Positions 15,164-50,200 of a stretch of DNA of 64,000 nt are shown piece by piece. Source of the stretch: Amoebophrya sp. A120 (taxonomy: Eukaryota; Protista; Dinoflagellata); the NCBI GenBank assembly GCA_905178155.1, contig CAJINV010000006.1, forward strand, positions 1,737,876 through 1,801,875, given 5' to 3'. Positions within the stretch are counted from its first letter, which is position 1. The number at the start of each line of letters is the position of its first letter. The notes beneath the pieces were generated by a model. The model made no database searches. It had not been told where the DNA came from and worked only from the letters and a program-made list of their open reading frames with translations. The position numbers and the translations under genes are program-made.

Positions 15164-16940
15164 TAGTTGATGAAACGGGAACGCGATCGCGAACGGACAG
15201 AGTGGTCTACTCGAGGACCGCTACAACTACAACTACATCGTCAATAAACCTTCTACTCACTGAATTTGTTGTTTTTCAACTACTTACTTTCATCAATCTT
15301 TATCTTTAATAGTGAACCACAACCAATACCAATTGCAAATTTTTCATCACAATCTTTTTACTATCTTTAGTGCAGATATGGAAGTGTCAGGATTGAAATC
15401 GTCAAAGTTGAAATAATTTGTGATGCATAAAATGCAACCCACAAAGTGCCTGCCTTGCAGAGTAGGCAAGGGAGGCACATTGCAAGGGGGGTAGAAATAG
15501 AGCTGCTAAAGTAGCATGACAGAAGGCGTCTTCCTTGTTACCCAAACAGCAATACAAACTGGATTTAAGCACCGCCAAAACTTGTCATGCGCCACTTGAA
15601 AACTGGGCTCCAACTGGCATCCATTTTATGCATGCCAAACTATTTCAACTCTGACGATTTGTTTCAAACCTGACACATCCATAGCAGAGCCACAAAAACC
15701 AATTGCAAATTTTTCATCACAATCTTTTACTACTTTGTTCACCAAAACTATCCGTACAGTACTTCTGAAGATCATGGTGCACAGACAGTGCCATGAAGAA
15801 GGCCGTTGATGTGCATGGAACACCAGCACCACCAGAGGCGAGCATTTAGACTGAATTTTAGACACAATAAGGAGAAATATACCTCCACTCAAGTAGAGCT
15901 ACCTTCAAGAAATAAAGTTTAGGCCACTTGATTTTCATTTTAGACAACTTTGACAGCGAGGAGAAGTGAAGTGCAGGATATCAGCAGTTTTTAGCTGTAC
16001 TAACAGACTGTGCGCGACGGAGGAGGTGCGGGGGGGAGAATGCATTTCGAACAAACGGGCAGGTGGACGAGAGCAAGTGCTATGAGATTCGGCAATATGG
16101 TCGTGCTCTCGACGACGTCCGGTAATTATGTTGCGCCTGTTTCTAGTACTCCGCGACTTGTTATATCCTTTGAAGACAACAAGAACAGAAGTACTTCTAG
16201 ACCCTGTATTTACACTACGTTGATTAGACCATTTTATTTTTATTAACTCAAGTTGGCATTGCCGTTGGACTTGGAGCACGACTGTGCGGCACCAGTACTA
16301 CACCGTTTGATGCAACAATACGGTCGTAATATCTACTTCGTGCTTGATTCATCATGTACAGATTGATACGTGAATAGAAGGTGACGAAAGAAGAGAAAGG
16401 TAAAAATGGGCTCAGCCACCTCGTGTTGATTGCAGTTGTTGACTAGTATCGATCTTTGATGAAGAGGACAAGCAAGAAGTTCTGCGACGTCGCGTGTCAT
16501 CTGGTTCATGACATCCCCATCAGAAAACAACGACCAATTGTTGTTTTCTTAGAAGATCTACACTAGGTCTTCAAAAAATACCAGAACGCCGAGAACGAGT
16601 GCAAGAAAAAATATAAGTGACTGTACTACTAGACCGCCGCGTGGCCTTCTAGTTGATGACGACCGAGGGCAAGAAGGGAGACCGTAGCTCTAGAATGCGT
16701 GGCTCGAGCGGGAATGAGGGACAAGAACTCGAGAGTAGATCTTGTAGTTCATCGTGGGTTATGTTTGTATTTCCTATCTTTAGGAAAGTGAACAAAGAGG
16801 ACTTCATCTGATACCCTGCAACTACTACAGCACGTCGACTAAGTTGTAGAAACCAAAAGCAAAACACAAGCAAGGAGAGGAACAACTAGACCCACTAGTC
16901 TTCGTCTTCAGGGGTCGTGGTCGCAAAAGAAGAAACCATC

Positions 16941-20465: not shown

Positions 20466-23400
20466 ATGCTCTTCCCCGCTCCGGTACCCTGAGTAAAAAT
20501 GTCGCGGACACCACCCCAGAGTTGTCATGCTGATTCGCAATTATGACAGGATCAAGAATAGCAACAGTTTCAGTTGTTGTAATGCGGACCCCCTTGTTGA
20601 GTGTGAGAGATACATATGATAAATTTCCAACACCCCCATGAGAGATACTTAGCTCCAATCGTTTTTTGGCATTTGTAATGCTGTGAAGAGGATGAGGAGA
20701 TAGCTTTGTGATGTGGCTGATGTACTTGCTGAACTACACTACACCACAATCCGCAGAGGAACTTGGCATGCGCGACTCTTAATAAAAAACCTCTGGACTT
20801 GTAATATTGCTATTGAGTTTTGTTCATCATTGACTCGGGGTTGAGGACGTTTTTATACGGAATACCCGCCTGCCAGCGAAGACGAGCCTGCGTCAAAGAT
20901 ATGAATTGCAAAAGTATCGTACTGGTATAAATGCATGACAAATTCCCTCAGCATGAGAAATAAAATTTGTTATGCGGATTTACCTTGAGGAAAAAATTTG
21001 TAATGCATGACTGCAATTACTACGAGTGCGATACTTTTGCAGTGCATAAAAGATGCCACAGCTCGAAACTTTGAAGCACCAGCTGAATGTATCCCACGAA
21101 AAAACTGTTTCACTGTGATGATGATTTTGCAAGATCTGCATCACAAGTTTGTCACACATGACAGAGAAAATTTTCCATGCGCGCTTCCAATTGGAAATAA
21201 ACACCCCTAAGGAGTCAAGGTCTTGCAGGTGTAGCAAGACAAATAGTTCTGCGTTCCATTCTATGCATCACAAGTTCACAGCGAAACAGTTTTTTCTTGC
21301 GATAGAATGCGGTAGCAGAGGCGAATCAGCTTGGAACCAAGGAGAGCCTGCTCCCACCCGAATTGCTGAACGAAATCGAATATCAAATGCAAATACGTCT
21401 GGGTGTGGAAACATGCAAAGTTTGTCATGCATATTTAGCATGACCCCCCGCCCCGTGATGCCTGTAATGCATGGCCTAGCATGACAGATTTGTAGAGGGC
21501 TTCCTTACGCCTGTTCTGCGTGAGAAATGCCCTCTCCGCGTAGTACAAACTGGGCTCCTCTTGCTCGCTGCAATGCAGATCTTTTTCGAATCCAGAGACT
21601 ACAGCATCATAAGTTGCAACCTTCCAGACATCCAGGGATGTTTGCGTTTGATACCGAGCAAATTCTCCACGAGCGGTGGACCCAATATCGCGAGAAAAAA
21701 CTGCTCAACTTGTAATGCGGACATGACTCGAGACAGTCAGATTTCAATTTTTGTCATGCTCGACATGCAGGAAGGTTGGTCATGAGCTTCACACACGTTT
21801 TCTCTTGCTGTTTGAAGCATGATCATAAGTTTTGTTTATCTTGCTTCGGGAATTCCAATTTGTGTTGCTGAGTCTGCAAAGATTTGAGACTGAGACAGTT
21901 TTTTCTTGGGATACCCACGACGTCAGGCAAGTTTTGTCCGAAATCGACAGCTGCGGCACGCAATTGGAAAACAGCCGCGTTTATGGATTGCAAATATCCC
22001 TGGATGTCTGGAACGAAGATTGCAACTTGTCATGCTACATCCGAATCATGCAAAAATCTGTGTTGCATGAGTGCCAAAAGCTGTTCACTTTCTACCAACT
22101 TGGCAAGGAGTTTCTCATGCAGGATGGGCATGACAGAGATGTTTGCAATGCATAGCGTTAGCAAAATCGCCGAACTGCAGCGGTTGGTCGACTATCTTGT
22201 GCAAAAGTATCGTACTCGTACAAATGCTAATGCAAGTCTTGCATTACAAATCTTGCATTCAAGGCAAATCTGCATTACAAATTTTATTTCTCATGCTGAG
22301 GAAATTTGTAATGCATTTATACGAGTACGATACTTTTGCAGTTCATATCGACTGTTGCTCTCTCGTCGGTGTTATCCTGTGCAAAAGTATCGTACTCGTA
22401 TTGCAGTCCTGCATTACAAATTTTTTTCTCAAGGTGAATCTGCATTACAAATTTTCTTTCTCATGCTGAGGAAATTTGTGATGCATTAATACGAGTACGA
22501 TACTTTTGCAGTTCATAGGTGTGGGCAAGGGGGCAAAAGGATCCGTGGAAGCGTCGTGCAGACTGAAAACCGACGACCAGCTACGAACCGAGGCGGAATG
22601 CGTACTGGAGACCCTGAAACTGGACTATCCTACTTAGTAAAAACGTCCCCACACGACCATAGTCAAGATGGGAATAAATCTGCTAGACAATAAATCCACA
22701 ACCAAGGCTTGGTTGTTGCGCATGACAAGTTTGGGCGAGCAATTGAATCGTATTCAGCTAGTTTACCAGCATCACAAATCTAGAATTTCATGCTGATTGG
22801 AGAGCATGGCAAAATGATCCGCAACAGGAGGAGAAAACGCTTGTTCTCATGGGTTCTTCCGCATGGGAAACATCTTCAGCATGCAGAATTGCATTACAGC
22901 TAGGGGGCGGGGACGTTTTTACAAATGATATGGGCCAGCTGTGGTTCAAAACGACGGAGACTCTGGCGAAATCGGGTATCCAGTGCAAAAGTATCGTACT
23001 CGTATTCTTACAGTCATGCATTACAAATCTTTTTCTCAAGGTAAATTCGCATTACAAATTTTATTTCTCATGCTGAGAAAATTTGTAATGCATTTACACT
23101 ACTAGTACGATACTTTTGCACTGCATATCGGCCGAGCGGGGACAACAGGGTGGCGAAGGTTTCCGTGCGGAGCTATCAAATGCAAAAATATCTGGGTCTG
23201 GAAGGTTGGAAGACTTGTCATGCAGGTCTTCCATGACACGTGAGGTCTGTCATACATGACCCAGCATGACAGATTCTGTCTCACCTCTATCATGCCTCGT
23301 CTGCATGAGAAACTTCCTTTCAACTTGGTCAAAAGTGGACAGCTTTTGGCATTCATGCAACACAGATTTTTGCACGATCCAGAATTAGCATATACAGGTT

Positions 23401-26400
23401 GTAACCTTCCAGACCCAGACATTTTTGCAATGCATAGGAGCAAGGGGAAGAGGAGTTTCCGCCGGCCCCTGAAGCTGTCGATGGTGGAGCAGGTAGTGCG
23501 GAGGCAATGACAGTGGAAAACGAGGGGGACGGAGGTATAAATTATATATTCGAATAAAATGATTGACTGTTTGTTTTTACAAGAAATTTTCCGCCACAGG
23601 AAGATAGACTGACATGAATCAAGCACGCATGAACATAGAAAATAACGGTGGACGCCTTTATTTTTTCATCTAATTTCAAGTACTTGTTCCTGCATCTGAA
23701 TATTAAACGATGACGAAGCAAGCATCTTCATCAGCTTCACACAGAAATATATATTTTCGTAAACGTTTATCCTAGTAGGTGACAATGCTGTCGGTCAACC
23801 ATATGGAAGTGTCAGGATGGAAAAAATCGACAAAGTTTGTAATGCAGAAAATCGATACCAGTTCCACTTCCACTTGGACCTTTTGGAACCCAGTTTATTC
23901 TACGCGGCGCATGATAAATTTTGGCAACTATTACACCTAGATCGAGTGCGCCATGCTGTTTGGCGGGCACGACGAAGACTTCTTTTGTCGTGCTATTCTA
24001 ACAGCAACAGCCCTGTCATCTCAGACCACAAACACGCTTGCAATCGGCCTCACTTGATGTTGCCAGATCCCTGCAAGACCACTGCCACTTGATGCCTTCC
24101 ATTTTGTGCATGACAAGGTGTTTCGATTTCGATCCTGACACCTCCATACACCAGCGGATGGCGAGGAAGTAGGTCTGACCGAGGATGCAGCAGTATTGGC
24201 GTCAGCGGACACGACAACACTCGAGAAGATGCCAGCACAACCATTCTATGCACTGCAAAAGTATCGTACTAGTATAAGTCGCATGATAATGATAAATTTC
24301 CTGAGCATGATGAGAAAAGAAATCTGTAATGCGGCTTTACCTTGACAATGAAATTTGTAATGCATAAATGCGATTAGTACAACGAGTGCGATGCTTTTGC
24401 AGCGCATACATTCGGGGATGCGAATGACCTGAAAACGCTGATCACCGCCATGGAAACGGCGTACAAATACCGCGACTCGGCTATGGCGTTCTCAACTGTT
24501 AAGTATATTCTCGGCTGTTACATATACATGGACTTGTGATGCAAGAATGGAAAAAGTGAACGGGGTGACATTCCGCGTCTTGCATGACAGATTTTGCACA
24601 GATTCTCAGCCTCTTAGGCTCTTCGAGAATTTGTCACGCGAAGCAGCTTGATGGTGTCGATTCTGAATCTGAAGGTAATTTGGCATGACAAATCATGCAA
24701 CAGTATGAGAATGTAACACTTGAGAGCGCCATATCGGCCACCTACCTCTGTGCGCAGATCCAGCAGCGGGCGTTAGAAGTGTCGCGAATGTTATCCGACT
24801 TGAAAAATACACATGTTGTGATCGTGGGATCTTCTTCGACAAACAATAAAACTGCACTTTTTCATGATGATCCTGCCTTGTTACAAGAAAATTTCGTCAT
24901 CGTCGCGTCCCTGGTGTTCTGTACAAGACACGAAATTTTTCTATCCTCTCCCACAGAGAAGATGAAAAAGAAAATGCACATCATGCAGTTTATTTTACTT
25001 GGTTTTTTTTCCTTTGATACCTATGGGTGACCAGCAGTGGCGTGTTATCTGACTTCCCGACAAATTTTCATCTTGGAAAAGTGATGAGCTACGGACTTCT
25101 CACTGCGTTTCCACCGGTGTTCTAGAAAGGAGTGAGAAGTCAGCGACTTCTCGTTTCTGAAGCATTTTCATTTGTGAGAATTCACTGATTTCTCACTTCT
25201 GAAAAGTTTTCATGTTGAAAAGCAAGAAGTCGCTTCGCTGACTTCTCACTTCTGAAAAGTTTTCATTTGGGAAAAGTGAGAAGTCACTGATCTCACTCGG
25301 TTTGCCGAACAATCCGAGAAACGGAGTGGGAAATCAGTGATTTTTCACTTTTGAAAGACTCTCACTCTGGTTGGAGTCACGCTGACTCTTCCCAGAGTGA
25401 GAATTTTTCAAAAGTGAGAAATCAGTGATTTCTCACTACTTTTCTCGAAGGTACCCGAGCACCGAATGCCCTTCGGAGCTCGGGTACCTTCGAGAAAAGT
25501 AGTGAGAAATCAGTGATTTCTCACTTTTGAAAAATTCTCACTCTGGAGTCGAACTCCAGAAAAAGTTTCCAGCCGTCAAGATTTTGCGAGAGTGAGAAGT
25601 CACTGATTTCTCACTTCTTTTCTCTAAGCCTTTCGGGATGTGTAGGTGACTTCTCACTCCGAGTGAAAAAGCCAGTGAGCTTGCACTTGGTTTTTTGAAT
25701 GTCTTCGGGAGGCAGCGCGAAAGCTCGCTGCGTGCGAAAAGTTAATGGAATTTCATTCCCCCACTTCTCCAGCCTATTCGTAAAACGGAGCGAAAAGGCG
25801 CGGACTTTTTACTCCCTCCCTGAGGGGCCCTTTGGGCGAGCCCGAAGTGCAAAGCCAGCGCGTTTTCGCTTTTGCTGTCAGCGCGCTCGCAAAGTCAGCT
25901 GGCTTTGATTGCCCCCCTAGGGGGATTTGTTTTGTGCCGTCGATCTTCGTGCTGCTGCAGAGGTTTGCGAAGCTTCAAAAGAACTACACTAGCGCGCCAA
26001 ACTGATCGACTTGGCGTGAATTCTGTCCCTCGAAGGCGTCCGGAGAAGTTTTCCGGCGAAAAGGGGGGGGGGGCTTTTGCGAGTCATGCATCATGCAGTT
26101 TATTTTACTTGGTTTTTGTTCCTTTGATACCTGTGGGTGACCAGCAGTGGCGTGTTATAAGCGAAAACCAAAAAAAAATACCAGGCAAGTCGCCAGCGAT
26201 TTAGATGGGAGGGGGGGCACCAGCAGCAGCAACATGGGGTGTATAGGTGGTCGCGCGCTTGTTTTCCAATTTTGGACAGCCAGCATAAGCCCCAGAACGC
26301 GCATGGCCGGCGCAGGTTGCCATTGTGGCTGCTCTTACCTTGGCCAGCCCCGGGCTTGATGCGTGGGCAGTATGCCGGCGGAGCGATCGGCGCCGGGCGG

Positions 26401-28602
26401 GGGAAAACAATGCGCGGCCCGGAAGGATGGGCAACAGCTAGGGGGCGCCAGAAAAGAAAACGCTAAGCGCAAGCAGTCCAGCTGTTCCTTTTTTCAGGTT
26501 CATTGCGCTACCCATCTGCTGGCATTTGCTCGTGGTCCAGCCCTTCCGCCCCTGTATCTGTGGCTGCGCCCGCACTGCTTCGCCAGACGCGGTATGCGTC
26601 AGCGAGAGTATGTTTTCGTATGGCAGAGGTCAAGAAAACAGAGAAAGCTCGTAGCAGTAAACAACGAAAAACGGACCAAAGGCCTGCGAATTTGGCGGGG
26701 TTTCGCTTCGAAGACAATCATTGCAATTTTCACGACTTAAAAATTGATGCAAAATAGTAGCGAGCAGGTTCACCATCGAAATGAGGAAAGTTGGAGGTTT
26801 GTCCCAGCATAGTTTTTTTTCCTTTGATGCCTGTGGGTGACCAGCAGTGGTGTGTTATCCTGAGCAAAAACGTCCCCACCTCATAGTCAAAGATGGGGAC
26901 CTTGCAACACAAACCTGATGAAAGTGTCGGGAGTCACGCATGACAAGTTGCAAGCCGTAGTGTATTGATACCGCAGGTTCTTAGCAAGGACAGTCGCGTT
27001 ACAAATCCATCTCCTCATGCTGATTCCAAAACACGATGGAAAATGGCTCTCAATCTCATGTTGTTGGGGATGCGCATTACAAATGTTTCTGCGATTGCAA
27101 ATTTGCATGACAACTACTCTGAGGTGGGGACGTTTATTTCACCCAGCATACGTGATGCCAGAGGACGAGCTGGAGGACTTGCAGCTACAACTGGACCAGC
27201 AGGGTAATATCATATTACTATCGATGTTTTTTTGTCATGCGTAAACATGCAATACAGACGGCATCTGTGATGCGGAAGCTGTATGCGTCGAGTGAAGATG
27301 ATGAAAAATCATGAAAATGATGTCCACGACCTCCTCCAGGTTGGTCCGTCTTATCCTATCACGCGCTGAACGAGCACGCTCTGGACCCTGTGCTGTCGCC
27401 AAACCTCTGCTCCCACGGGGCCACGGCCTTTGCGAAAATTAATCCCAGTATTTTGCTGCAGATCTTGGAGTATGCACTGCAAAAGCATCGCACTTACTAG
27501 TATGAATTGCATTACAAATTAGCCCAGCATGAAAAGCTGAATTTGTCATGCTGAATTACCTAAGAAACCAGATTTGTCATGGTAGTCTGGCATTTAATAT
27601 AAAAGTACGATGCTTTTGCGCAGGATATGGAGGAGCACAGTCAGGAACTGCAGATGTACAGAAACCTGTTTTATCACAGCTTGAAGGTATGAAATGCAAA
27701 AGTATGATCGTACTAGTAGTAGAAATCGCATTACAAATTTCCTCAGCATGATGAGAAATAAAATTTGTAATGCGGATTCACCTTAAGGTTATTTGTAATG
27801 CATGACTGCAATTGCTAAATCTAAACGAGTACGATACACTTTTGCAATCCATAAAAGGCCTTGAAGGACAACTTTGCGGACCCGAGTAACGCTGCGTTTA
27901 TCCAGTGCAAGAGCATCGTACTCGTAGTAATTGCAATTATGTATTACAAATCTCCATCCCAAGGTAGAACAGCATGAGAAATTCCTTTTGTCACGCGGTA
28001 AGGTAATTTCAATTTGTAATGCAATTACTACTAGTACGAAGCAGTTTTGCAATGCACCGCGTTTCGGGAGAAATTGAATTCCGACGAGGTATTATCCCAC
28101 GAAAAAACTGTTTCACTGTGGTGATTTTGCAAAATCTGCATCACAAGTTTGCTACGCATGACACTGAAAATCTGTCTGGGGGGTTCCTAAGGGAAAACAC
28201 AGCTAGAAATCACTTGTCTTGCATGTGTAGCATGACACACACTTCTGCGATCCATTTTCTGCATCACAAGTTCACAGTGAAACAGTTTTTTCTTGCGATA
28301 GGTATTGCGGCTGAAGACGTTACTGGAGGATTTCATCCTGACCGGTGGCAACCCTGGGCAGGTGCTGCACAACATCGACGGTACCATTTTGCTATCCTGT
28401 GCAGAGGTATTGCACTCGTATAAATGCAGGTCTTGCATTACAAATTTCTTTTTCAAGGAAAATCGGCATTACAAATTTAATTTCTCATGCTGAGAAAATT
28501 TGTAATGCATTTATACGAGTGCGATACTTATTTTGCAGGTCATATTTTCTGGAAGCGCAGATTCTGTTCAAGCTCTTGATTCCTTTGGTCGACGGGGTGT
28601 GA
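20466..28602 (+). CDS. Gene 4: hypothetical protein with ~20 introners and at least 2 canonical introns; the junction across 24780-26835 is unresolved
   Basis: Open frame from MLFPAPAASEDEPASKMPQLETLKHQLN.. through to ..YKYRDSATYLCAQIQQRALE (24778). It resumes at VTSSGV-L-PEDELEDLQLQLDQQ|GWSVLSYHALNE.. and runs to TGA 28602. GT-AG introns at 23535-23778 and 27204-27339. Could be two genes. Confidence 0.65.
24482..24733. mobile_element. Introner family H representative (TIR TATGGCGTTCTCAA)
   Basis: TSD TCGGC; another coding-region copy at 14206-14463. Confidence 0.9.
24979..26858. repeat. Triplicated 45-70 bp host segment separated by two unrelated inserts
   Basis: ..TTCCTTTGATRCCTRTGGGTGACCAGCAGTGGYGTGTTAT at 24979-25048, 26089-26158 and ~26813-26858. 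Confidence 0.88.
25392..25546. repeat. Near-perfect palindrome with 69-bp arms and a 17-nt centre, inside an array of AGTGAGAARTCASTGATTTCTCACT units (~25080-25670)
   Basis: Arm 25392-25460 is the reverse complement of 25478-25546 with one mismatch; the centre has a further CCGAA/TTCGG stem. Confidence 0.92.
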
Positions 28603-29637
28603 AAGACAAAGAGGAGAAGGAATGGAGCAGATCATTGTGGCAAAAAAAGATATATGGTGCGGTACCAGAGCATAAGCAGGAGCAGCTGGTGCAGCCTCCA
28701 TGAAGCTTCATGAATGAAATGAAACTACTATAATACTCTATTCTTGCAATAGTACTACACCCACGGGACATCAGATGAAATCTTGGATTTTGATATGAAA
28801 AAACTCTACTGCGCTACTTACGCGTCGTACACCAGCCTATGGAACGTCTCGGGGGTCAAAGAAAAATATAAGCGTTTCTTTCAACAAGACAATGACAAAT
28901 CTCAGACACAAGAACTACCTCGAAAATGAATGACATGTAGAAGATGAAGAGACGGTCTACTTCTTCGCAGAAGAAAGTTGTAGTTGCATAAGCGTTACAA
29001 GAGCTCCTCGTACGAAGAGGTTCTTCTTTGGTCTCGCGCAAATAAAGTATAAGATCAGCAACGAAGTGAAATTCACGCTCTAGAAGCAAGAGCCTGGTAT
29101 TGATCCCTCCAGCGCGGATCGTTAAATGAGCGGCCTGGATCTTGAGATGAACCAGTTATAATTGTATGACGATCTTCAAATTCAAAACGCAAAAATTCCA
29201 AAGTAGATGATCCTGATCGCGATGATTTTGGAGTTCAACTTAGCAATCGTTCCGACCGTGTGATGAATCTCATGCTAGGCTAGGGGCGAAACTCCGCCTT
29301 CATTGTGCGCAGGCAGTTGATGTCATGGTCATGCGTACGGCTACGGACGAACAAACGTATTTTCACCTCTAAATAAATTCAACAGGGAACAAGTTAGTCG
29401 AAGTCAGTACAACGCAGTTCATGCATTCTGATCTTTTGTCAGAACTGTTGTAATTTCTTGTGTGTCCTCTTCTATAATTTTTCCTCAAGGTAGTCGTAGT
29501 TCGTCGTAAATTTATTCACGCGCGATTTCTACACTTCCTCATCCCGAGAATAAAGTCAACAACTCGTGCCTATTTAAGACCACAAATAATACTTACCTCC
29601 TTCCACCACCAGACTTTGACTTGTCAGACACATCAAA

Positions 29638-31490
29638 ATGGCGAAGTCAATTCGTTCCAAGATCAAGAAGAGGCTCCGCACCGTGAAGAGGCAGCGGGTG
29701 GATAAAATGGTCGATACCCCGAGGAGAGAAGCTTGCAACAACTCGCTGACGAAGCTGATTAAGGGCGAGGTATTAATACTTATTGCGATCATGCATTACA
29801 AATGTAGCTGCTAAGGCAAACCCGCATTAGAAATTCAGTCTGTAATGCTGAGCCAACTTGTATTGCGTTTTACACCAGTGCGATCCTTGTTGTTTTGTAA
29901 TTCATAGAGCAATGAAGCTTGTAACAACTCGCTAACGAAGTTGATTAAGGACGAGACATGAAGGATTTTTGTATGACGATGAAGCGGTGTTTATTTTTTG
30001 CTGTAGCCAACATCCTGCTCCTGCAGCATCAAACAACAAGGAGCGTCGAGAACACCAGAACACCTCAAACAACACATCACGCGGTGTTGGTTTCCGACAT
30101 GCAGCTTGCATCAGTTCTCAAAGGCGTCGCTTCATCAGTTTTTGCATCACAAAAGCTTGCTCTTGTGTAGCTTTAGGTTTAGGTTTCTGTAGCATTACAA
30201 ATTTCAATTTTTCTTTCCAATCAGGTCACCCGACACAAGCAAGTAAAGAACGCGTTTCTTCACCCAAACGACCCAGAGGCCGAGATTCCGCAGAAAAGCG
30301 TGAAAAAACCGATCGACTTCCGATCAGAAACGCTGCCGATGGTACTGAATTCTTTCACTTGATAACATACATGCTGGTTCAGTGTTGTTCGATTTTTTTT
30401 TTTTCGTCTTCAACAAACACACTTCATGCATCCTGTTCAGCAACATGCTACCTGCTGTGTAAAATTTTTTACATGCTTTGCATGACATGACATGACATGA
30501 CATGACATGACGAAGTTGTCGTAGAGGCCTAGATCGTTCTTGCGCAGCAGTTGTACTAGCATGACAAATGAAATAAAAACCACAGTCCGGCTTCGCCACT
30601 AATATGAACTGCAAAACAAAGTATCGTACTCGTATAAATGCATTACAAATTTCCTTAGCATGAGAAATAAAATTTGTAATGCTGATTTGCCTTGATAAAG
30701 AAATTTGTAATGCAAGACCTGCATTTATACGAGTGCGATACTTTTGCACAGCATAACTAAGGGTAACCGACGAAAGTACACGGAGGAAGAGCGGAAAGAA
30801 TTGCAAAAACTCGCGAAATATGCATTGCAAATATGACTGGGTCTGGAAGGATGCAAGGTTTGTCATGCTAGTCTGGCGTGACTCTGAATTCTGTATTGCG
30901 TGGCCACAAACTACAGCCTCTCTCGCGTGTCATGCAAATACAACGCAGTTTCTCATGCAGAATACGCAGCACAGAAGCACGAAAAAACTTGTCATGCAGC
31001 TTGGTGGCGCATAATTATACCACTTATTCTTGACTGCCTTGCATTACAAGTTTCCAGACCCAGACATTTTTGCATTTGATACGAAATCCCACCCCGAGGA
31101 GAAGATACTCGCGGGCAGGGGCAAACTTGCGTACGAGTCCTGCAAGGTCGGTCAGGATAGTGCGAAACAAGTCGCTGCTGTTCTATCCTGTGCAAAAGTA
31201 TCGTACTCGTATTGCAATCATGCATTACAAATTTTTTTCTTATAGGTAAATCCGCATTACAAATTTTGTTTCTCATGCTGAGGAAATTTGTCATGCGATT
31301 TATACTAGTACGATGCTTTTGAATTTCATATCTTCAGGAGAATAACGATTCCGAAGAGGACGCAGAAATGGAAGAGTCTGGAGAACAAGAAGCGAAGAAA
31401 GACGACGTGGATACAAAGCGCAAACCGGAACTGCCGAAGAAAAAAAAGAACGCCAGGAGTCGGGTACAGAAGTTCCGGCAGAAGAAGTGA
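29638..31490 (+). CDS. Gene 5: small basic protein, LLPH (Laps)/YBL028C-like 60S ribosome biogenesis factor
   Basis: Exons 29638-29769 (MAKSIRSKIKKRLRTVKRQRVDKMVD..), 30225-30341 (..KNAFLHPNDPEAEIPQKSVKKPIDFRSETLPM) and 30586-30602, then onward SGFATKGNRRKYTEEERKELQK.. to TGA 31490. It has 2 GT-AG introns and 3 introners (30603, ~30819, ~31184). The MAKSxRSK basic N-terminus is the hallmark of that family; recognised from memory, no search run. Confidence 0.7.
29770..30224 (+). other. Canonical GT-AG intron whose first 137 nt are a left-truncated family A introner
   Basis: GTATTAATACTTATTGCGATCATGCATTACAAAT.. aligns to family A from its internal GTAT to ..TTCATA (29906); acceptor CCAATCAG at 30224; phase-0 join KGE|VTRHK. 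Confidence 0.75.
30481..30510. repeat. (CATGA)6 microsatellite in canonical intron 30342-30585
   Basis: Directly visible. Confidence 0.95.
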
Positions 31491-38200: not shown

Positions 38201-41200
38201 ATGCCCGGAGCTGTGTCGCTGGAGCACCTTCACTTGTATGAACTGCAAAAGTATCGTACTCGTATAAATGCATTACAAATTTCCTCAGCATCAGAGAAAA
38301 AATTTGTAATGCGGATATACCTCAAGTAGAAAAAGTAAAAGATTTGTAATGCATGACTGCAATGCGAGTATTGTGCGATGCTTTTGCACAGGATAACTTA
38401 ACCTCCGTGTCAACGTCGTTCACCGCTTTTCATCAGGACGATGTGTATCGTGAGAAAAAAGTGTTTCACTGTGAACCTGTGATGCAGAAAATGGAACGCA
38501 GAACTTAACTATTTGTCTTGCTACACCTGCAAGGCATGGGATTTTCCAGCGCGTTTTCCCTTGGGAAGTGCGCATGACAATAAATTTTCAATGTTAATAT
38601 GTGTAACAAACTTGTGATGCAGATCTACTTGCAAAATCACCACAGTTGTGAAACAGTTCTTTCTTGCGATAATGTGGACAGCAGCACCACTGTCTACCAC
38701 GTCCAGGAAGAATTTAACTTCCAACTCCAGGCGGGAAAGAAGCCGACGCCAGGAAAACATGATCAGAACAACACCGGTCGTAGTTCCTTCAGGTGTTATG
38801 CCTGGGACGGTCGTTAGCATACAGAAGGGTGAATTTGCAGTGAATTTGTATTGCATGACTTGCATTTACTTCAAAAGAGAAGTGCGCTGCGTAAAGGGCT
38901 GGGCACGAGCCCAAGCAGCTCACGCAGCGTGAAGGGCTGCAGCTCGGTGCCAGGTGGCACTTGCAGCACCGAAAGAAGTAGTGGTAGGTCTTGCTGGGGC
39001 CCGCCGGACTGTGTAGTGCATATGTAGCCAAAGAGTGTGGGTCGTGGGGCTCTTGTTCATCTGCGCGTCTGCCTCAGAAGTTCCTCTCCGGAATGGTCGG
39101 GAGGGAGGGCGACGCCTGAACACAGGGGCACTAGTTCAACACGTGCGCTCTCACGAGTTGTGGTTGTGGCTTGGAATTGGATATCTGGGAGTAGCCTCGG
39201 GTGGAAAGGAAGGCACGACTCGGCTACGGGCACTAGCTTGCTTGGCCTGGTGTGCTCGGCTTACAACTCCCCAGGCGTGTTTTTGCCCCCGGAGCAAGTC
39301 TTTTTCGAGGTGGCTCTCAGGTCAAGAATTCTCTTGGTGAATTTTGAGGCTTTTTGTTTTTGCGACACTTTTTTGAAGCCCCCAAACCCGGAGTTTCTCA
39401 CGCGCTAGCGAATTTTGAAAAGGAGCCGGAGGCCAAAATTCACCGGCGCCCTTTTCAAAATTCACCCCAAAATTCACCGGGCGCCCATTTTCGACCGTGA
39501 TAAGCAAACTTTAGCGCAGAAAAGTGCTCAAAAAAGTGCACAGATAGGCCATGAGAAGGAACGCAAAGGGGGAAAAAGCGTAGTCCTCTGCTGCCCTAAG
39601 CCCGCCTGTATTCTGCTGAAAATGCCGCAAGATTTCACGCGCCTGCCGGGAAAATGCGTCAAAGCTCTCGGCCGGGTCCTTTCGTCCTTGCCTGCCTTCT
39701 TGCTTAGTTGTATGCGCTTCGCAGCCTTTATTTCTGGCGTCTTTGCCGCGGCTGCTGCAGTGCTCTTCTGCGAGAACCCGGAGGCGCAAAAACCTGCCCA
39801 AAGAACGGCGCCCGGGCCATGTCCTCTGGCTGCCCACTGCACAAAAGCCCGCGGCTGCTGTGCGGTGCAGGGCCTTCTACTTCCCAGAACAGGGCCAAGA
39901 GGGACAATGTCCCGGCGGGCTCAACTGCAATTTGGCATGCAAAATTCACTACAAATTCACCACTTCTCATGCTAACGGGTGACAACATGATCAGAACAAC
40001 ACCGGTCGTAGTTCCTTCCGGTGGCTCACGACAAACTTCGCGACAAGTGGCGGTCGCAGCAGCGGTGGTGGTGGCTCGTCTTCATCAACGTCTTCTTCTG
40101 GTTCCTACCACAAAGATCATAACCCGGTGCAGCACCACTTGAAAATGATCAAACACACCTCTTTCGCGATTCACCAGGAGAGTTTGCAAGTCCTCCTGCA
40201 CAGCGTAAGAACTGCAACTGGGAAAGCAAAAAATGCCAAAACACGACTTGGCAAGACCTCCTTCAACCCACTGTGGCCCGGAGCGACTTTCAAGGATCAA
40301 CAACTCTACTCCGCCGGACAGCGCAACCGGTCGGAAACCTCCACGGGCCTACTGGCCTATGAACAGCAAAAGTATCGTACTCGTATAAATGCATTACAGA
40401 TTTCCTCAGCATGAGAGAGAAAATTTGTAATGCTGATTTACTTTCAGAAAAAGATTTGTAATGCATGACTGCAAAAATACGAGTACGATGCTTTTGCACT
40501 TCATATCGCCGGCATGAACGCCTGGCCCGCGGAGAAGGACGATGCCAACCGGATTACCAGCACGGCGAAGCACTTGGTTATGAACTGCAAAAGTATCGTA
40601 CTAAGATGAATTGCAATACAAATTGGCTCAGCATTACAAATTGAATTTGTAATGCGGATTTATCTTAACAACATAGATTTGTAATGCATAACTGCAATTA
40701 GGACGAGTATGTACAATACTGTTGCAGTGCATATTGGAGCCCGGGCCGGAATCCTGTGAGTACGTGAAAGCGACCTCGAACGGCCTAGACACCACGGCGG
40801 CCGGGTCCCCCGAAGGGACCGCGAATTTAACAAACGACTTTGTGAACAAGAACGGCCTAAACACCCTGCGCGCCGAGGCGATCAAATTTGAAATGAAAAA
40901 GTCGGGCTCGAGCTGCACCCCCGGAAACTACCGGTGTTGCACGAACCTGAAGATGCAATCCCGGGCGGACCCGAATTTGTTCCGCGAGGGGCAGTATGTC
41001 AATTGCAAAAGAGTATCGTACTCGTATAAATGCATTACAAACTTCCTCAGCATGAGAAACGCTGATTAGCCTTAAGAAAAAGATTTGTGATGCATGATTG
41101 CAATACGAGCAATTTTTGCGATGCATAGTCCGTACGTCTTCATCCGGTCGGACTCCGGGGAAGAGGACGGCGACGCCTTGATGGCTAGGGTGAAGCGATT

Positions 41201-47200: not shown

Positions 47201-50200
47201 GCGGAAAAGCCGTATCAACCGCAACTACGTCTGGGTCTGGAAGCTTGTGATGCTCAAGTATGCATGAGTCAGGCGCTTTCAAGTGCAGCCAAGCATGACA
47301 AGTTTAGTTGACCACGCCGTCTGACGCGTAGCGCGCATGACAAACCGCGTTCTACTTCTTGCATCACAAAAAAATGGTGCCTTTGCTGGCTATGCAACAC
47401 AGATTTGTTTTCAGGAATGCAAGACATGCAACACAGGTTCCACTTTTATTCCAGAGCCAGACATATTTGCGATGCATAAGCCGGCAAACTGGAATCGGGA
47501 GCAGAAGGAGTACCGAAAATTCATCGAGTCTGTCCTCGCGAATCAGGCTATGGCCTGGCCGGCACCGCAGTCCAACATGCTCCAAGTCGACGCGATGTCG
47601 GAGTTATGAGAGTGCACAACCCCCCCCCCTCCCCCTCATTAATATTTACATTGCTTGACTTCCGGGTTCTGGTCCCGCCTACCCCCCGGCGACAGGTGAC
47701 CTTGACAGGTGACCTTGACAGGTGACCTTGACAGGTGACCTTGACAGGTGACCTTGACAGGTGATCGTGACAGGTTACCGTGACAGGTGACCTTGACAGG
47801 TGACCTGGACAGGTGACCTGGACAGGTGGCCGCGACAGGCGAAGCGTGAGGATAAAGCAAAGGCGAGGCCAGCGCCTGGGCGCAAATATTTATTTTTCAC
47901 GCCAAATGCCGCTCTTGACGTGAAAAATAAATTAAAAGCGCCAAAAAAAAAAAACGACGCAAAAATTGAAAAAGATTAAAGCTGTAACACAAACTGCCTC
48001 CATAAGCAAAGAAGTCTTTGCGTTCGCGTTGCCATGCAAAAATAAAAAAGCGGCTATCTCTGCAATGCACGGCCAGGAAACAGCTGCTCTCTTTGCTCTG
48101 TGGAACCGGAAAGGCGTTGCGCTTCAATATTAGAGAACTTTTTTGCAGAAGCCACACAGAGATATTCACTTTGCTTCTATTTTTGTTTTTTCTTGCAAAA
48201 TGCAGGGCGCCTAATTCGCCCTTTTTCCACTAGCGCTTCGCGCACTGAGCCACTACGCGCGCGCCTGGTGTGAGGCGAGGGGCGGACGCTGTCCGCCCCG
48301 ATGCCGAACACCCTTCCCCCACTAGCGCCACTAGGGACGAGCACAAGGCCCCAGCGTGGGGACCCTGTCCCCACGCTCGGGTGGGCCTTGTTTGTCATGC
48401 AAAATACTTAGCTTACGCCTTGCCTCTTGGCACTGTCTGCATGACAAGTTCTGGCAGCTGCCCAAATAGCACTACACTCCTGTCCACATTTGTCATGCGA
48501 AACCTGCATTCTTGCTGACGCTTGTATTGCTGTTCATACGATACTAAAAATGAGAAGAACGGGGAGTTGTGCACTTTCATACGAGTTCGAGTGCTCGAAG
48601 AAATGCTGTGGAAATCGGTTCTGCAAGTCGTTTTCCTATTTGAAAAACAAAACGAGGAAGAACAACTGCTTTATCAAGTGTAAAAATGTCTGGGTCTGCA
48701 AGAGTGGAAGATTTGCGATGCAGGTTTTCCATGACTCATGAGGTCTGTAATGCATGGTCTAGCATCACAGATTTTGAGAGGGCTTCCTCGTGCCTGTTCC
48801 GCATGAGAAATGCCCTCTCGCCGTGGCAAAAACTGGACTCCTCTCGCCGGTCATGCATTACAGGTTTTTTTTTGAATCCGAAGACAGCATTACAAGTTGC
48901 AATCTTCCAGACCCAGACATTTTTACATTTGATACGCTTGCTTTTCAAGCAACTCGACGCGGCGGTCATTTCCACGAAAGCTATGCATTGCAAAAGTATC
49001 GTACTAGTAGAAATGGCATGACAAATTTGAATAGCATGACAAATGAAATTTGTAATGCAGATTTACCTTAGGAAGCAGATTTGTATTGCATGATTGCAAC
49101 TGGTACGAGTACGATACTTTTGCAAAGCATAAAAGCGACGGAGCTGCGAAACACCCCCTGCGGTAAGGAGGTCTCGCACATGCAGTTTTGCCGGCAGACC
49201 GAAAAATACTGCAGCTACTTTGCCGACCCGAACGTCTCGCCGATTTTTTCGAAAGTGGATGAAGCCTCCCCGTTGACCACGCTAAGCGGAGATATGAAAT
49301 GCAAAAATACCTGGGTCTGGAGACTTGTGATGCTGGGTGGCGTATCATGAGGAGGCCACAAGTGCTGGCGCAGCATGACAAGTTTCTGAGCTTCTAGGTG
49401 TTGCCCACTCTGCATGACAGACTGCGTTTCTGCACGACAGAAAAATGGGTAGGTGGCTACCGTTTGAAGTTTATAAACGAATGGGACGCCCTGCCCTTAG
49501 CCTTCCAACATGACAGAAAAATGGGGCTGCTCTTGGGTAACGTGCATGACAGATTTATTAAGAGTCATGCCAGACAAGCATGACAAACGTGCACTCTTCC
49601 AGACCCAGACATTTTTGCATTTGATAGGAGAGAACGTGAAACAAGCGGCCGCGCCGAAGTGTCAGCAGTGTCCCGATTTCAAGAACGGAGAAACCTGTGC
49701 GTCCATATGAGAGTGCACAACTCCCCCTCCCCCTCATTTGTATGGCATGATCAGCATTACAACAACCAGCGCACGTAGGGCCTGCGCATGACAAGTTCAA
49801 GCTCACGCGCGTACTAGTGCAGTACTGTTTGGGCTTCCCGAAAAATCTGTCATGCAAACAGTGCCACAATCTGGCGCTTGGATTTGGTCACTTGCATTAC
49901 AAATGAGGGGGAGGGGGAGTTGGGCAATCTCATACTCCATGGTGCAGAAGCAGAAGGAGGCCGGGATGTTCGACGTGAATATTTCGAAGAGGATACTGTG
50001 AGGAAAACCGTTCCCACCTTAGAGCCAAGATGGAGATTTTGCAACACAAACCTAAAGAGTTTTGCGAGCCACGCATGACAAGTTCAAGTTGGAGGCTGTA
50101 TTGTAGTGCAGTTTAGCTGGTGCAACGGAATCTTCCGCATAACAAATCCACCTCCTTATAATCCTGTCTACAGCATTACAAGTTTCATCAAAACACGATT

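Follow-up and report, generated by a model that had tools for sequence, protein, structure and literature searches.

The window, by which we mean the whole 64,000-nt (64-kb) stretch of Amoebophrya sp. A120 DNA that was analysed, carries on its forward strand a gene whose first coding exon, of 44 codons, is opened by an ATG at 29638. A protein search with this exon returned one match at 100% identity, P0001 (191 aa, labelled Amoebophrya sp. A120), in which the PF10338 YBL028C_N domain scores 33.9 bits (Pfam cut-off 28.2), and translation of six exons of the window reproduces P0001 exactly. The features of the gene, in window coordinates, are as follows:

29638..29769, + strand: coding part of exon 1, 44 codons, the copy present in mRNA (PF10338 / YBL028C-type ribosome biogenesis gene)
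29721..29725, + strand: left target-site copy GAGGA, with the putative insertion point at 29725/29726 (register -186 with GAGCA)
29770..30224, + strand: composite GT-AG intron of 455 nt (joint in X4 and X8 contigs; window exons give P0001)
29770..29778, + strand: working donor GTATTAATA, microhomologous to the element's GTATCGTA, a putative duplicate of the host donor
29779..29906, + strand: family A terminal inverted repeat (TIR) remnant, without left TIR, right end TTCATA intact (left boundary uncertain by a few nt)
29907..29911, + strand: right target-site copy GAGCA, directly after TTCATA
29912..29955, + strand: dead duplicate of the final 44 nt of exon 1 (6 changes, 3 synonymous)
29956..29960, + strand: putative decayed old donor, ACATG where a relative has GTATAATAA (by-eye comparison with the X9 loose end)
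29956..30224, + strand: body and CAG acceptor of the putative older host intron, intron B (X9 loose end, X9 record 14, X10 record 9)
30225..30341, + strand: exon 2, first letters GTCACC (X4 joint; P0001 translation)
30342..30585, + strand: intron 2, GT-AG (X4 joint; P0001 translation)
30586..30602, + strand: spliced-in micro-exon of 17 nt, with a GT-AG intron on one side and an intact family A intron on the other
30603..30760, + strand: intact family A element in reverse orientation, with its target-site duplication (TSD), spliced out as a non-canonical intron (X4, P0001)
30819..31086, + strand: non-canonical intron of 268 nt, another TAT..ATA element (X4, P0001)
31184..31335, + strand: intact family A element with TSD, spliced out as a 152-nt non-canonical intron (X4 joint)

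The first intron runs, as the earlier note had it, from GTAT at 29770 to 30224, and its last letters are CAG. All 455 nt are skipped in one X4 contig and one X8 contig of putative RNA (the RNA status of these runs is a guess, and the two samples share one study code), and exon 1 up to 29767 shows no differing letter in either. Its GT..AG ends are used in the putative RNA, as in a canonical GT-AG intron, and 29769/30225 is the sole joint listed here in contigs that omit rare forms; the raw-read RNA runs X11, X12 and X13 contributed 2, 2 and 0 reads, too few to test splicing. We considered 29914-29955 as a working exon and rejected it, as the X4 and X8 contigs both take the first exon copy. An assembly artefact was likewise rejected: all 111 sampled words occur in X1 and X2, and record 1 of X1, which may be the window's own source, spans 29450-30450 unchanged. 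A metagenome scan by protein gave 254 pattern matches, none of them confirmed, and a scan by a 26-nt exon pattern gave no match. Further downstream, the micro-exon at 30586..30602 appears as 12 letters between the sides of the joints in the X4 contig, in agreement with the P0001 translation. Both orientations of family A are spliced out within this one gene (30603-30760 and 31184-31335).

The family A set comes from a blastn search of the window with the intact copy at 31184, which returned 51 regions; removal of two duplicate rows, and of 13 regions that did not have both ends, left 36 two-ended copies. A 5-nt target duplication surrounds all 36 (perfect in 26, matching at 4/5 positions in 10), a result slightly biased by the selection of end pairs for the best duplication match. 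Perfect flanking repeats of 4, 6, 7 or 8 nt occurred around none of these copies, and of 3 nt around one. Two family A copies lie only about 25 nt apart, at 22193-22517. The introners of A120 are described, in the main-text parts of PMC7789003, as having TAT-N7-AAA inverted ends, direct repeats of 3-5 nt and non-canonical splicing.

The remnant at the start of the first intron is a member of this family whose body extends to TTCATA at 29906, as had been proposed. It aligns by blastn with the copy at 40613-40701 at an E value of 5e-20, and its local score of 126.5 compares with a maximum of 38 among 200 shuffles. Its right end (29893-29906, minus strand) carries the TAT-N7-AAA motif, reading TAT-N7-AAAA, and the left end is absent. 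The earlier note was right that the left TIR is gone, but put the loss at about 14 nt; the two nearest copies align with it from 29777-29779 onwards, and the remnant more likely begins near 29779, short of its left end by about 20-26 nt, as judged from these alignments. The remnant differs from the consensus in 33 of 126 columns, is 79.5% identical to its nearest copy and is more decayed than 35 of the 36 intact copies.

Directly behind the element, at the first base past its end, begins a copy of the end of exon 1. The pair originally noticed (29914-29955 versus 29728-29769) is indeed present, with 38/42 identical positions, but the duplicated segment extends to 49 bp (29907-29955 versus 29721-29769, 7 differences). 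The letters next to the element, GAGCA at 29907-11, match GAGGA at 29721-25 in the register of the duplication and in 4 of 5 positions; the 4/5 match by itself has a chance probability of 0.018. Since the copy starts at the element's 5-nt target site, we place the insertion point at 29725/29726. By this reading of the sequence, the old insertion site would lie inside exon 1, 44 nt upstream of the present donor, at what is no longer an intron position, and 29912..29955 would be the original exon piece behind the element. As the earlier note had described, the place of the left TIR is taken by a short duplication, and the former exon piece has come to lie within the intron. The duplication probably reaches about 9 nt further, into the intron, for a total of about 58 bp. 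One of the changes in the dead copy turns G43, invariant in 12 of 12 aligned proteins, into D. Synonymous sites have changed at 3/10 and non-synonymous sites at 3/34 (p = 0.12), an excess that is not significant by another test either (p = 0.13-0.27). A third 186-bp repeat unit (30099-30122, 71%) was unsupported by blastn.

The composite intron itself does not look like an introner. Among the 25 inverted repeats in the intron analysis none of 8-20 nt joins both intron ends, and the 455 nt fold no better than shuffles (z = -1.1, compared with z = -6.5 for the intact copy at 31184..31335). The 3-5 nt target-site repeat is absent from the intron borders, which instead both read AGGT; of the element's TSD pair, one copy (29721-25) lies inside the exon and the other (29907-11) inside the intron. 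Splicing at the element's own ends is not among the joints listed in the X4 and X8 contigs, from which rare forms are omitted. Two inverted repeats are found within the intron, 29881-29895 / 30031-30045 (14/15 nt) and 29978-29986 / 30128-30136 (9/9 nt).

A relative of this locus appears in the marine metagenome run X9, where three records match (12, 13 and 14). Record 12 (199 nt, depth 2) matches 29624-29773 and is unbroken at 29725. It differs from the window at four letters, all synonymous and none within 29698-29773, and it carries the letter of the first copy at 7 of the 7 positions at which the 49-bp copies differ. From exon 1 it passes directly into GTATAATA and then into sequence like window 29961-29984, which in A120 lies behind the exon copy. 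In alignment terms, the record follows the window to 29773, continues with AATA, and past GTAT has AAT and then 27 letters that align by eye to 29960-29986 with 6 mismatches. A 24-nt stretch of this loose end has a single match in the 64-kb window (29961-29984, 3 mismatches) and none in 100 shuffles; the stretch was picked after viewing the alignment, from 30 visible loose letters. Record 14 covers 30045-30260 with 9 differing letters, and record 9 of run X10 covers 30220-30352, including the CAG acceptor. The divergence of the record 12 loose end (6/27) exceeds that of record 14 (9/about 210; p = 0.003; the records are not joined), and the two may be different genotypes. Record 13 matches only 29637-29671, the first 35 coding letters, and its different upstream sequence points to a more distant relative present in the X9 run. 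Record 12, a single contig at depth 2, indicates an allele in which exon 1 is uninterrupted and is followed by a GT donor and the older intron, and we take this element-free state to be the ancestral one.

We think it very doubtful that the X9 allele arose instead by a subsequent collapse of the duplication, or that the contig is a chimera. Its depth of 2 would suit such an origin, as would the contrast between record 14, diverged from the window by only about 4%, and the exon copy, with a decay of 14%. A collapse to within 3 nt of register, however, would need homology reaching into the donor, which would again make the donor duplicated host sequence, and the contig has substitutions of its own on both sides of the junction.

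The sequence from 29956 to 30224 is consistent with an older intron. It ends in pyrimidines and CAG, and a blastn comparison found no family match longer than about 32 nt in the window; the possibility that intron B is another introner was rejected on the same absence of a family match in the window. At its start, 29956, GT has become AC. The X9 allele, with exon 1, GTATAATA and intron B, indicates that a GT intron at 29769/30225 existed without the element. The GT-AG intron and its donor are thus likely older than the element, as read from these sequences. The working donor GTATTAATA is one insertion away from the relative's GTATAATA and three changes from the element's GTATCGTA, and most likely it is the host's own donor, duplicated, and not the internal GT of the element; the duplication would have switched into the element where GTATAATA resembles GTATCGTA. 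In this architecture, an older intron with a host donor, we have high confidence. According to PMC7789003, canonical introns make up 98.6% of those at positions common to two strains, and introners are less frequent in ribosomal and translation genes than elsewhere; both trends are in line with an old canonical intron here.

These observations bear directly on the interpretation given in the earlier note, by which a duplication removed the left TIR, the exposed GTAT of the element became the donor, and an introner was thereby turned into a canonical spliceosomal intron. GTAT does occur at positions 15-18 in 50 of the 72 element ends, so that these four letters fit either source; GTATCGTA could yield GTATTA by two transitions and one insertion, and AC, not GT, stands behind the old exon copy. 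However, no element end reads GTAT.?AA, or even G[TC]AT.?AA (0/72 each), and the element-free allele, which has a GT donor without any element, already reads GTAT, AATA and intron B. Moreover, the acceptor and 269 of the 455 nt do not come from the element, the intron position lies 44 nt from the insertion site, and the present intron has neither a terminal inverted repeat nor the fold of the intact copy (z = -1.1 versus -6.5). We therefore regard the exposed-donor explanation as highly improbable. The same applies to the proposed passage from a non-canonical to a spliceosomal intron, as the X9 allele already has a GT intron at 29769/30225, a point for which one low-depth contig is the source.

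A variant in which spliced mRNA served as the template, so that cDNA gave exon 1 and the first GT of exon 2, seems to us more improbable still. Exon 2 does start with GT, and either side of the joint is compatible with AGGT; yet after this GT the window continues with ATTAATA, as in the genomic donor, and not with the CACC of exon 2, and an ancestral X9 donor would contradict the variant as well. Since the donor letters are host-like rather than exon-2-like (GTCACC), the template was genomic, not cDNA.

How the duplicate arose is a separate matter, on which we lean, short of firm belief, towards repair from an element-free allele: a patch copied from that allele would have fused the remains of the element and a dead exon end into an older GT-AG intron. 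In the ancestor, exon 1 would have been unbroken and the intron, from the donor GTATAATA to a CAG acceptor, about 270 nt long. By the TSD rule of the family, an element would have entered at 29725/29726, duplicating the 5-nt GAGGA, and it was probably spliced as a non-canonical intron before a 44-nt micro-exon. We propose this micro-exon state because a like layout works at 30586-30760 of the same gene, where the order of canonical intron, micro-exon and introner is in use (30342-30760). A break at the left end of the element would have let the left chromosomal end copy at least 58 nt (target site, micro-exon and donor) off an element-free genomic template, and the copied end would have rejoined the element about 20-26 nt in, at GTATAATA/GTATCGTA microhomology. 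Splicing at present joins the first-copy donor to the old acceptor (X4, X8). The old micro-exon and the old donor would then have decayed, as seen in GT to AC and in G43 to D; an active old donor could have allowed an additional in-frame exon of 48 nt to start from the AG at 29906-07, which the loss of this donor would have stopped, a possible reason for that loss. The net result would be one intron at the old canonical position in place of two, with the introner position gone. The locus is likely a case of incomplete intron loss rather than the birth of a standard intron.

Divergence data give two weak, post hoc hints of repair from an allele. One is the synonymous excess in the dead copy (p = 0.12), and the remnant's greater decay relative to 35 of the 36 intact copies fits as well. 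For the other, the relative differs at 4/14 synonymous sites in 29638-29697, at 0/16 in 29698-29769 and at 6/27 sites at the start of intron B, and pooling the flanks against the 0/16 of the copied tract gives a Fisher p of 0.048, which is post hoc and borderline. A tract with 0/16 divergence is what a conversion tract would give, and we regard this as a weak hint; splicing constraint near the donor could also yield 0/16. An allele with the full element at 29725 was not seen among the run records matched to the locus.

A one-step origin by half-site insertion predicts an identical final sequence and is a possible, though less probable, account. Here the transposase would have joined only the right end of the element at GAGGA, the free host end would have been extended by copying of the intact strand, over about 58 nt and past the donor, and then attached at the microhomology to a left end that had been trimmed. 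The element would never have been its own intron, and the result would be an insertion with a very long target duplication. What the locus shows fits this: there is one normal and one truncated end, the duplicated host sequence (49 bp and about 9 nt more) begins precisely at the intact end of the element (29907), and the remnant exceeds the intact copies in decay by roughly as much as the exon copy has decayed. A single event would suffice, and no second allele is needed. Aberrant retroviral integrations, with one normal and one truncated end and a long host duplication, match this structure and are a direct precedent (parts of PMC5041404), and aberrant integrations are also reported for Sleeping Beauty (parts of PMC5801840). 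Half-site insertion predicts purely neutral decay of the second copy, however, and the same ancestry for the first copy and intron B, and the data lean weakly the other way on both counts (p = 0.12 and p = 0.048, respectively).

An unlikely third origin would be a 186-bp tandem duplication by slippage between GTATCGTA and GTATAATA, after which the first element, the complete one, was lost precisely. It leads to the same sequence using only the observed microhomology and two ordinary types of event, and it agrees with the divergence hints if the loss was an allele conversion, but it requires two rare events at one site, and its intermediate is not seen in the run contigs. Allele repair, half-site insertion and tandem duplication with loss all give the same sequence, and on the weak hints above the two-step repair from an allele is slightly favoured over one-step half-site insertion.

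Several features of the locus are shared with known processes. Introns are known to be gained when a genomic segment containing AGGT is duplicated in tandem, and as in such gains an exon end and donor are duplicated here and the second copy is skipped; in contrast to them, no new intron position arises, the position being already present in the element-free allele. Precise intron loss mediated by reverse transcripts is likewise a known process. The exon is continuous across the former insertion site here too, whereas the template held intron letters, and so was genomic, and the loss is incomplete. As far as the main text of PMC7789003 describes them, the introners of A120 share with family A inverted ends, direct repeats and non-canonical splicing, but the copy studied here is one-ended and does not define the borders of its intron. 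That source reports DR/IR organisation in 15% of the canonical introns of A120, and its main-text parts do not describe one-ended copies with long exon duplications. With the integrations of HIV/ASLV and Sleeping Beauty, as covered in parts of PMC5041404 and PMC5801840, the locus shares a normal and a truncated end and a duplication far longer than 5 bp. It differs from them in that the TIR element is non-autonomous, the allele is natural and has decayed, and the duplication restores an exon and its donor, an origin in the same event being only possible. Transposon insertions into pre-existing introns, which according to passages of PMC12130899 are filtered out of introner surveys, share the end state of element sequence within an older intron; here, by contrast, the target site is exonic, and the element became intronic only via the duplication. 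A one-ended introner with a long exon duplication appeared in no title or abstract start found in a search that left most subscription journals outside.

Recurrence within the window is limited. Among 248 loosely defined element ends, two have their outer flank repeated upstream (29907 and 26812), and both duplications begin exactly at the element end. An enrichment over random positions of the window was not found, with 58 of 3000 of these also having a repeated flank. The candidate second case is a 47-bp segment (26812-26859) directly after an element-like end (CCCAGCATA, 26811), with copies at 26112-26158 (700 bp upstream) and 25002-25049 (1810 bp upstream), three copies in total; each is followed by TAT, and the last then by an apparently intact element at about 26857-27149. 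A protein search for the 26812 locus gave no match. Elsewhere, a 47-bp direct repeat (15322-15368 / 15692-15736) surrounds an inverted-repeat element (15377-15683) that is itself intact and bears a GCAGA duplication of its own, and this arrangement (15322-15736) is probably an older tandem repeat with an insertion. Short repeat arrays, including one 13-bp tandem unit, occur at 25048-25628, 572-921 and 47691-47842.

As a single decayed locus, the case changes no model. It stands as a well-resolved fossil, a variant of known events that reflects either incomplete loss of an introner or aberrant insertion, and it cautions that a GT-AG intron need not have been made by an element whose sequence lies at its start. 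The exit of introners from genes has been much less studied than their arrival. Here an incomplete loss can be read together with its template and junction, and its signature is countable across a genome that has about 30,000 introner-like introns (PMC7789003). It is a doubtful proposition that Amoebophrya has a recurring route of introner escape, in which the exon end and the next donor are recopied from an allele free of the element, the introner position is erased and its body passes into the neighbouring intron. If true, pairs of non-canonical and canonical introns would be fused into single GT-AG introns on the scale of the genome, and the events would leave countable fossils, each with one TIR and a long exon duplication starting from the TSD. 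Such a route would also help to explain the scarcity of introners in ribosomal and translation genes that is noted in the main text of PMC7789003.
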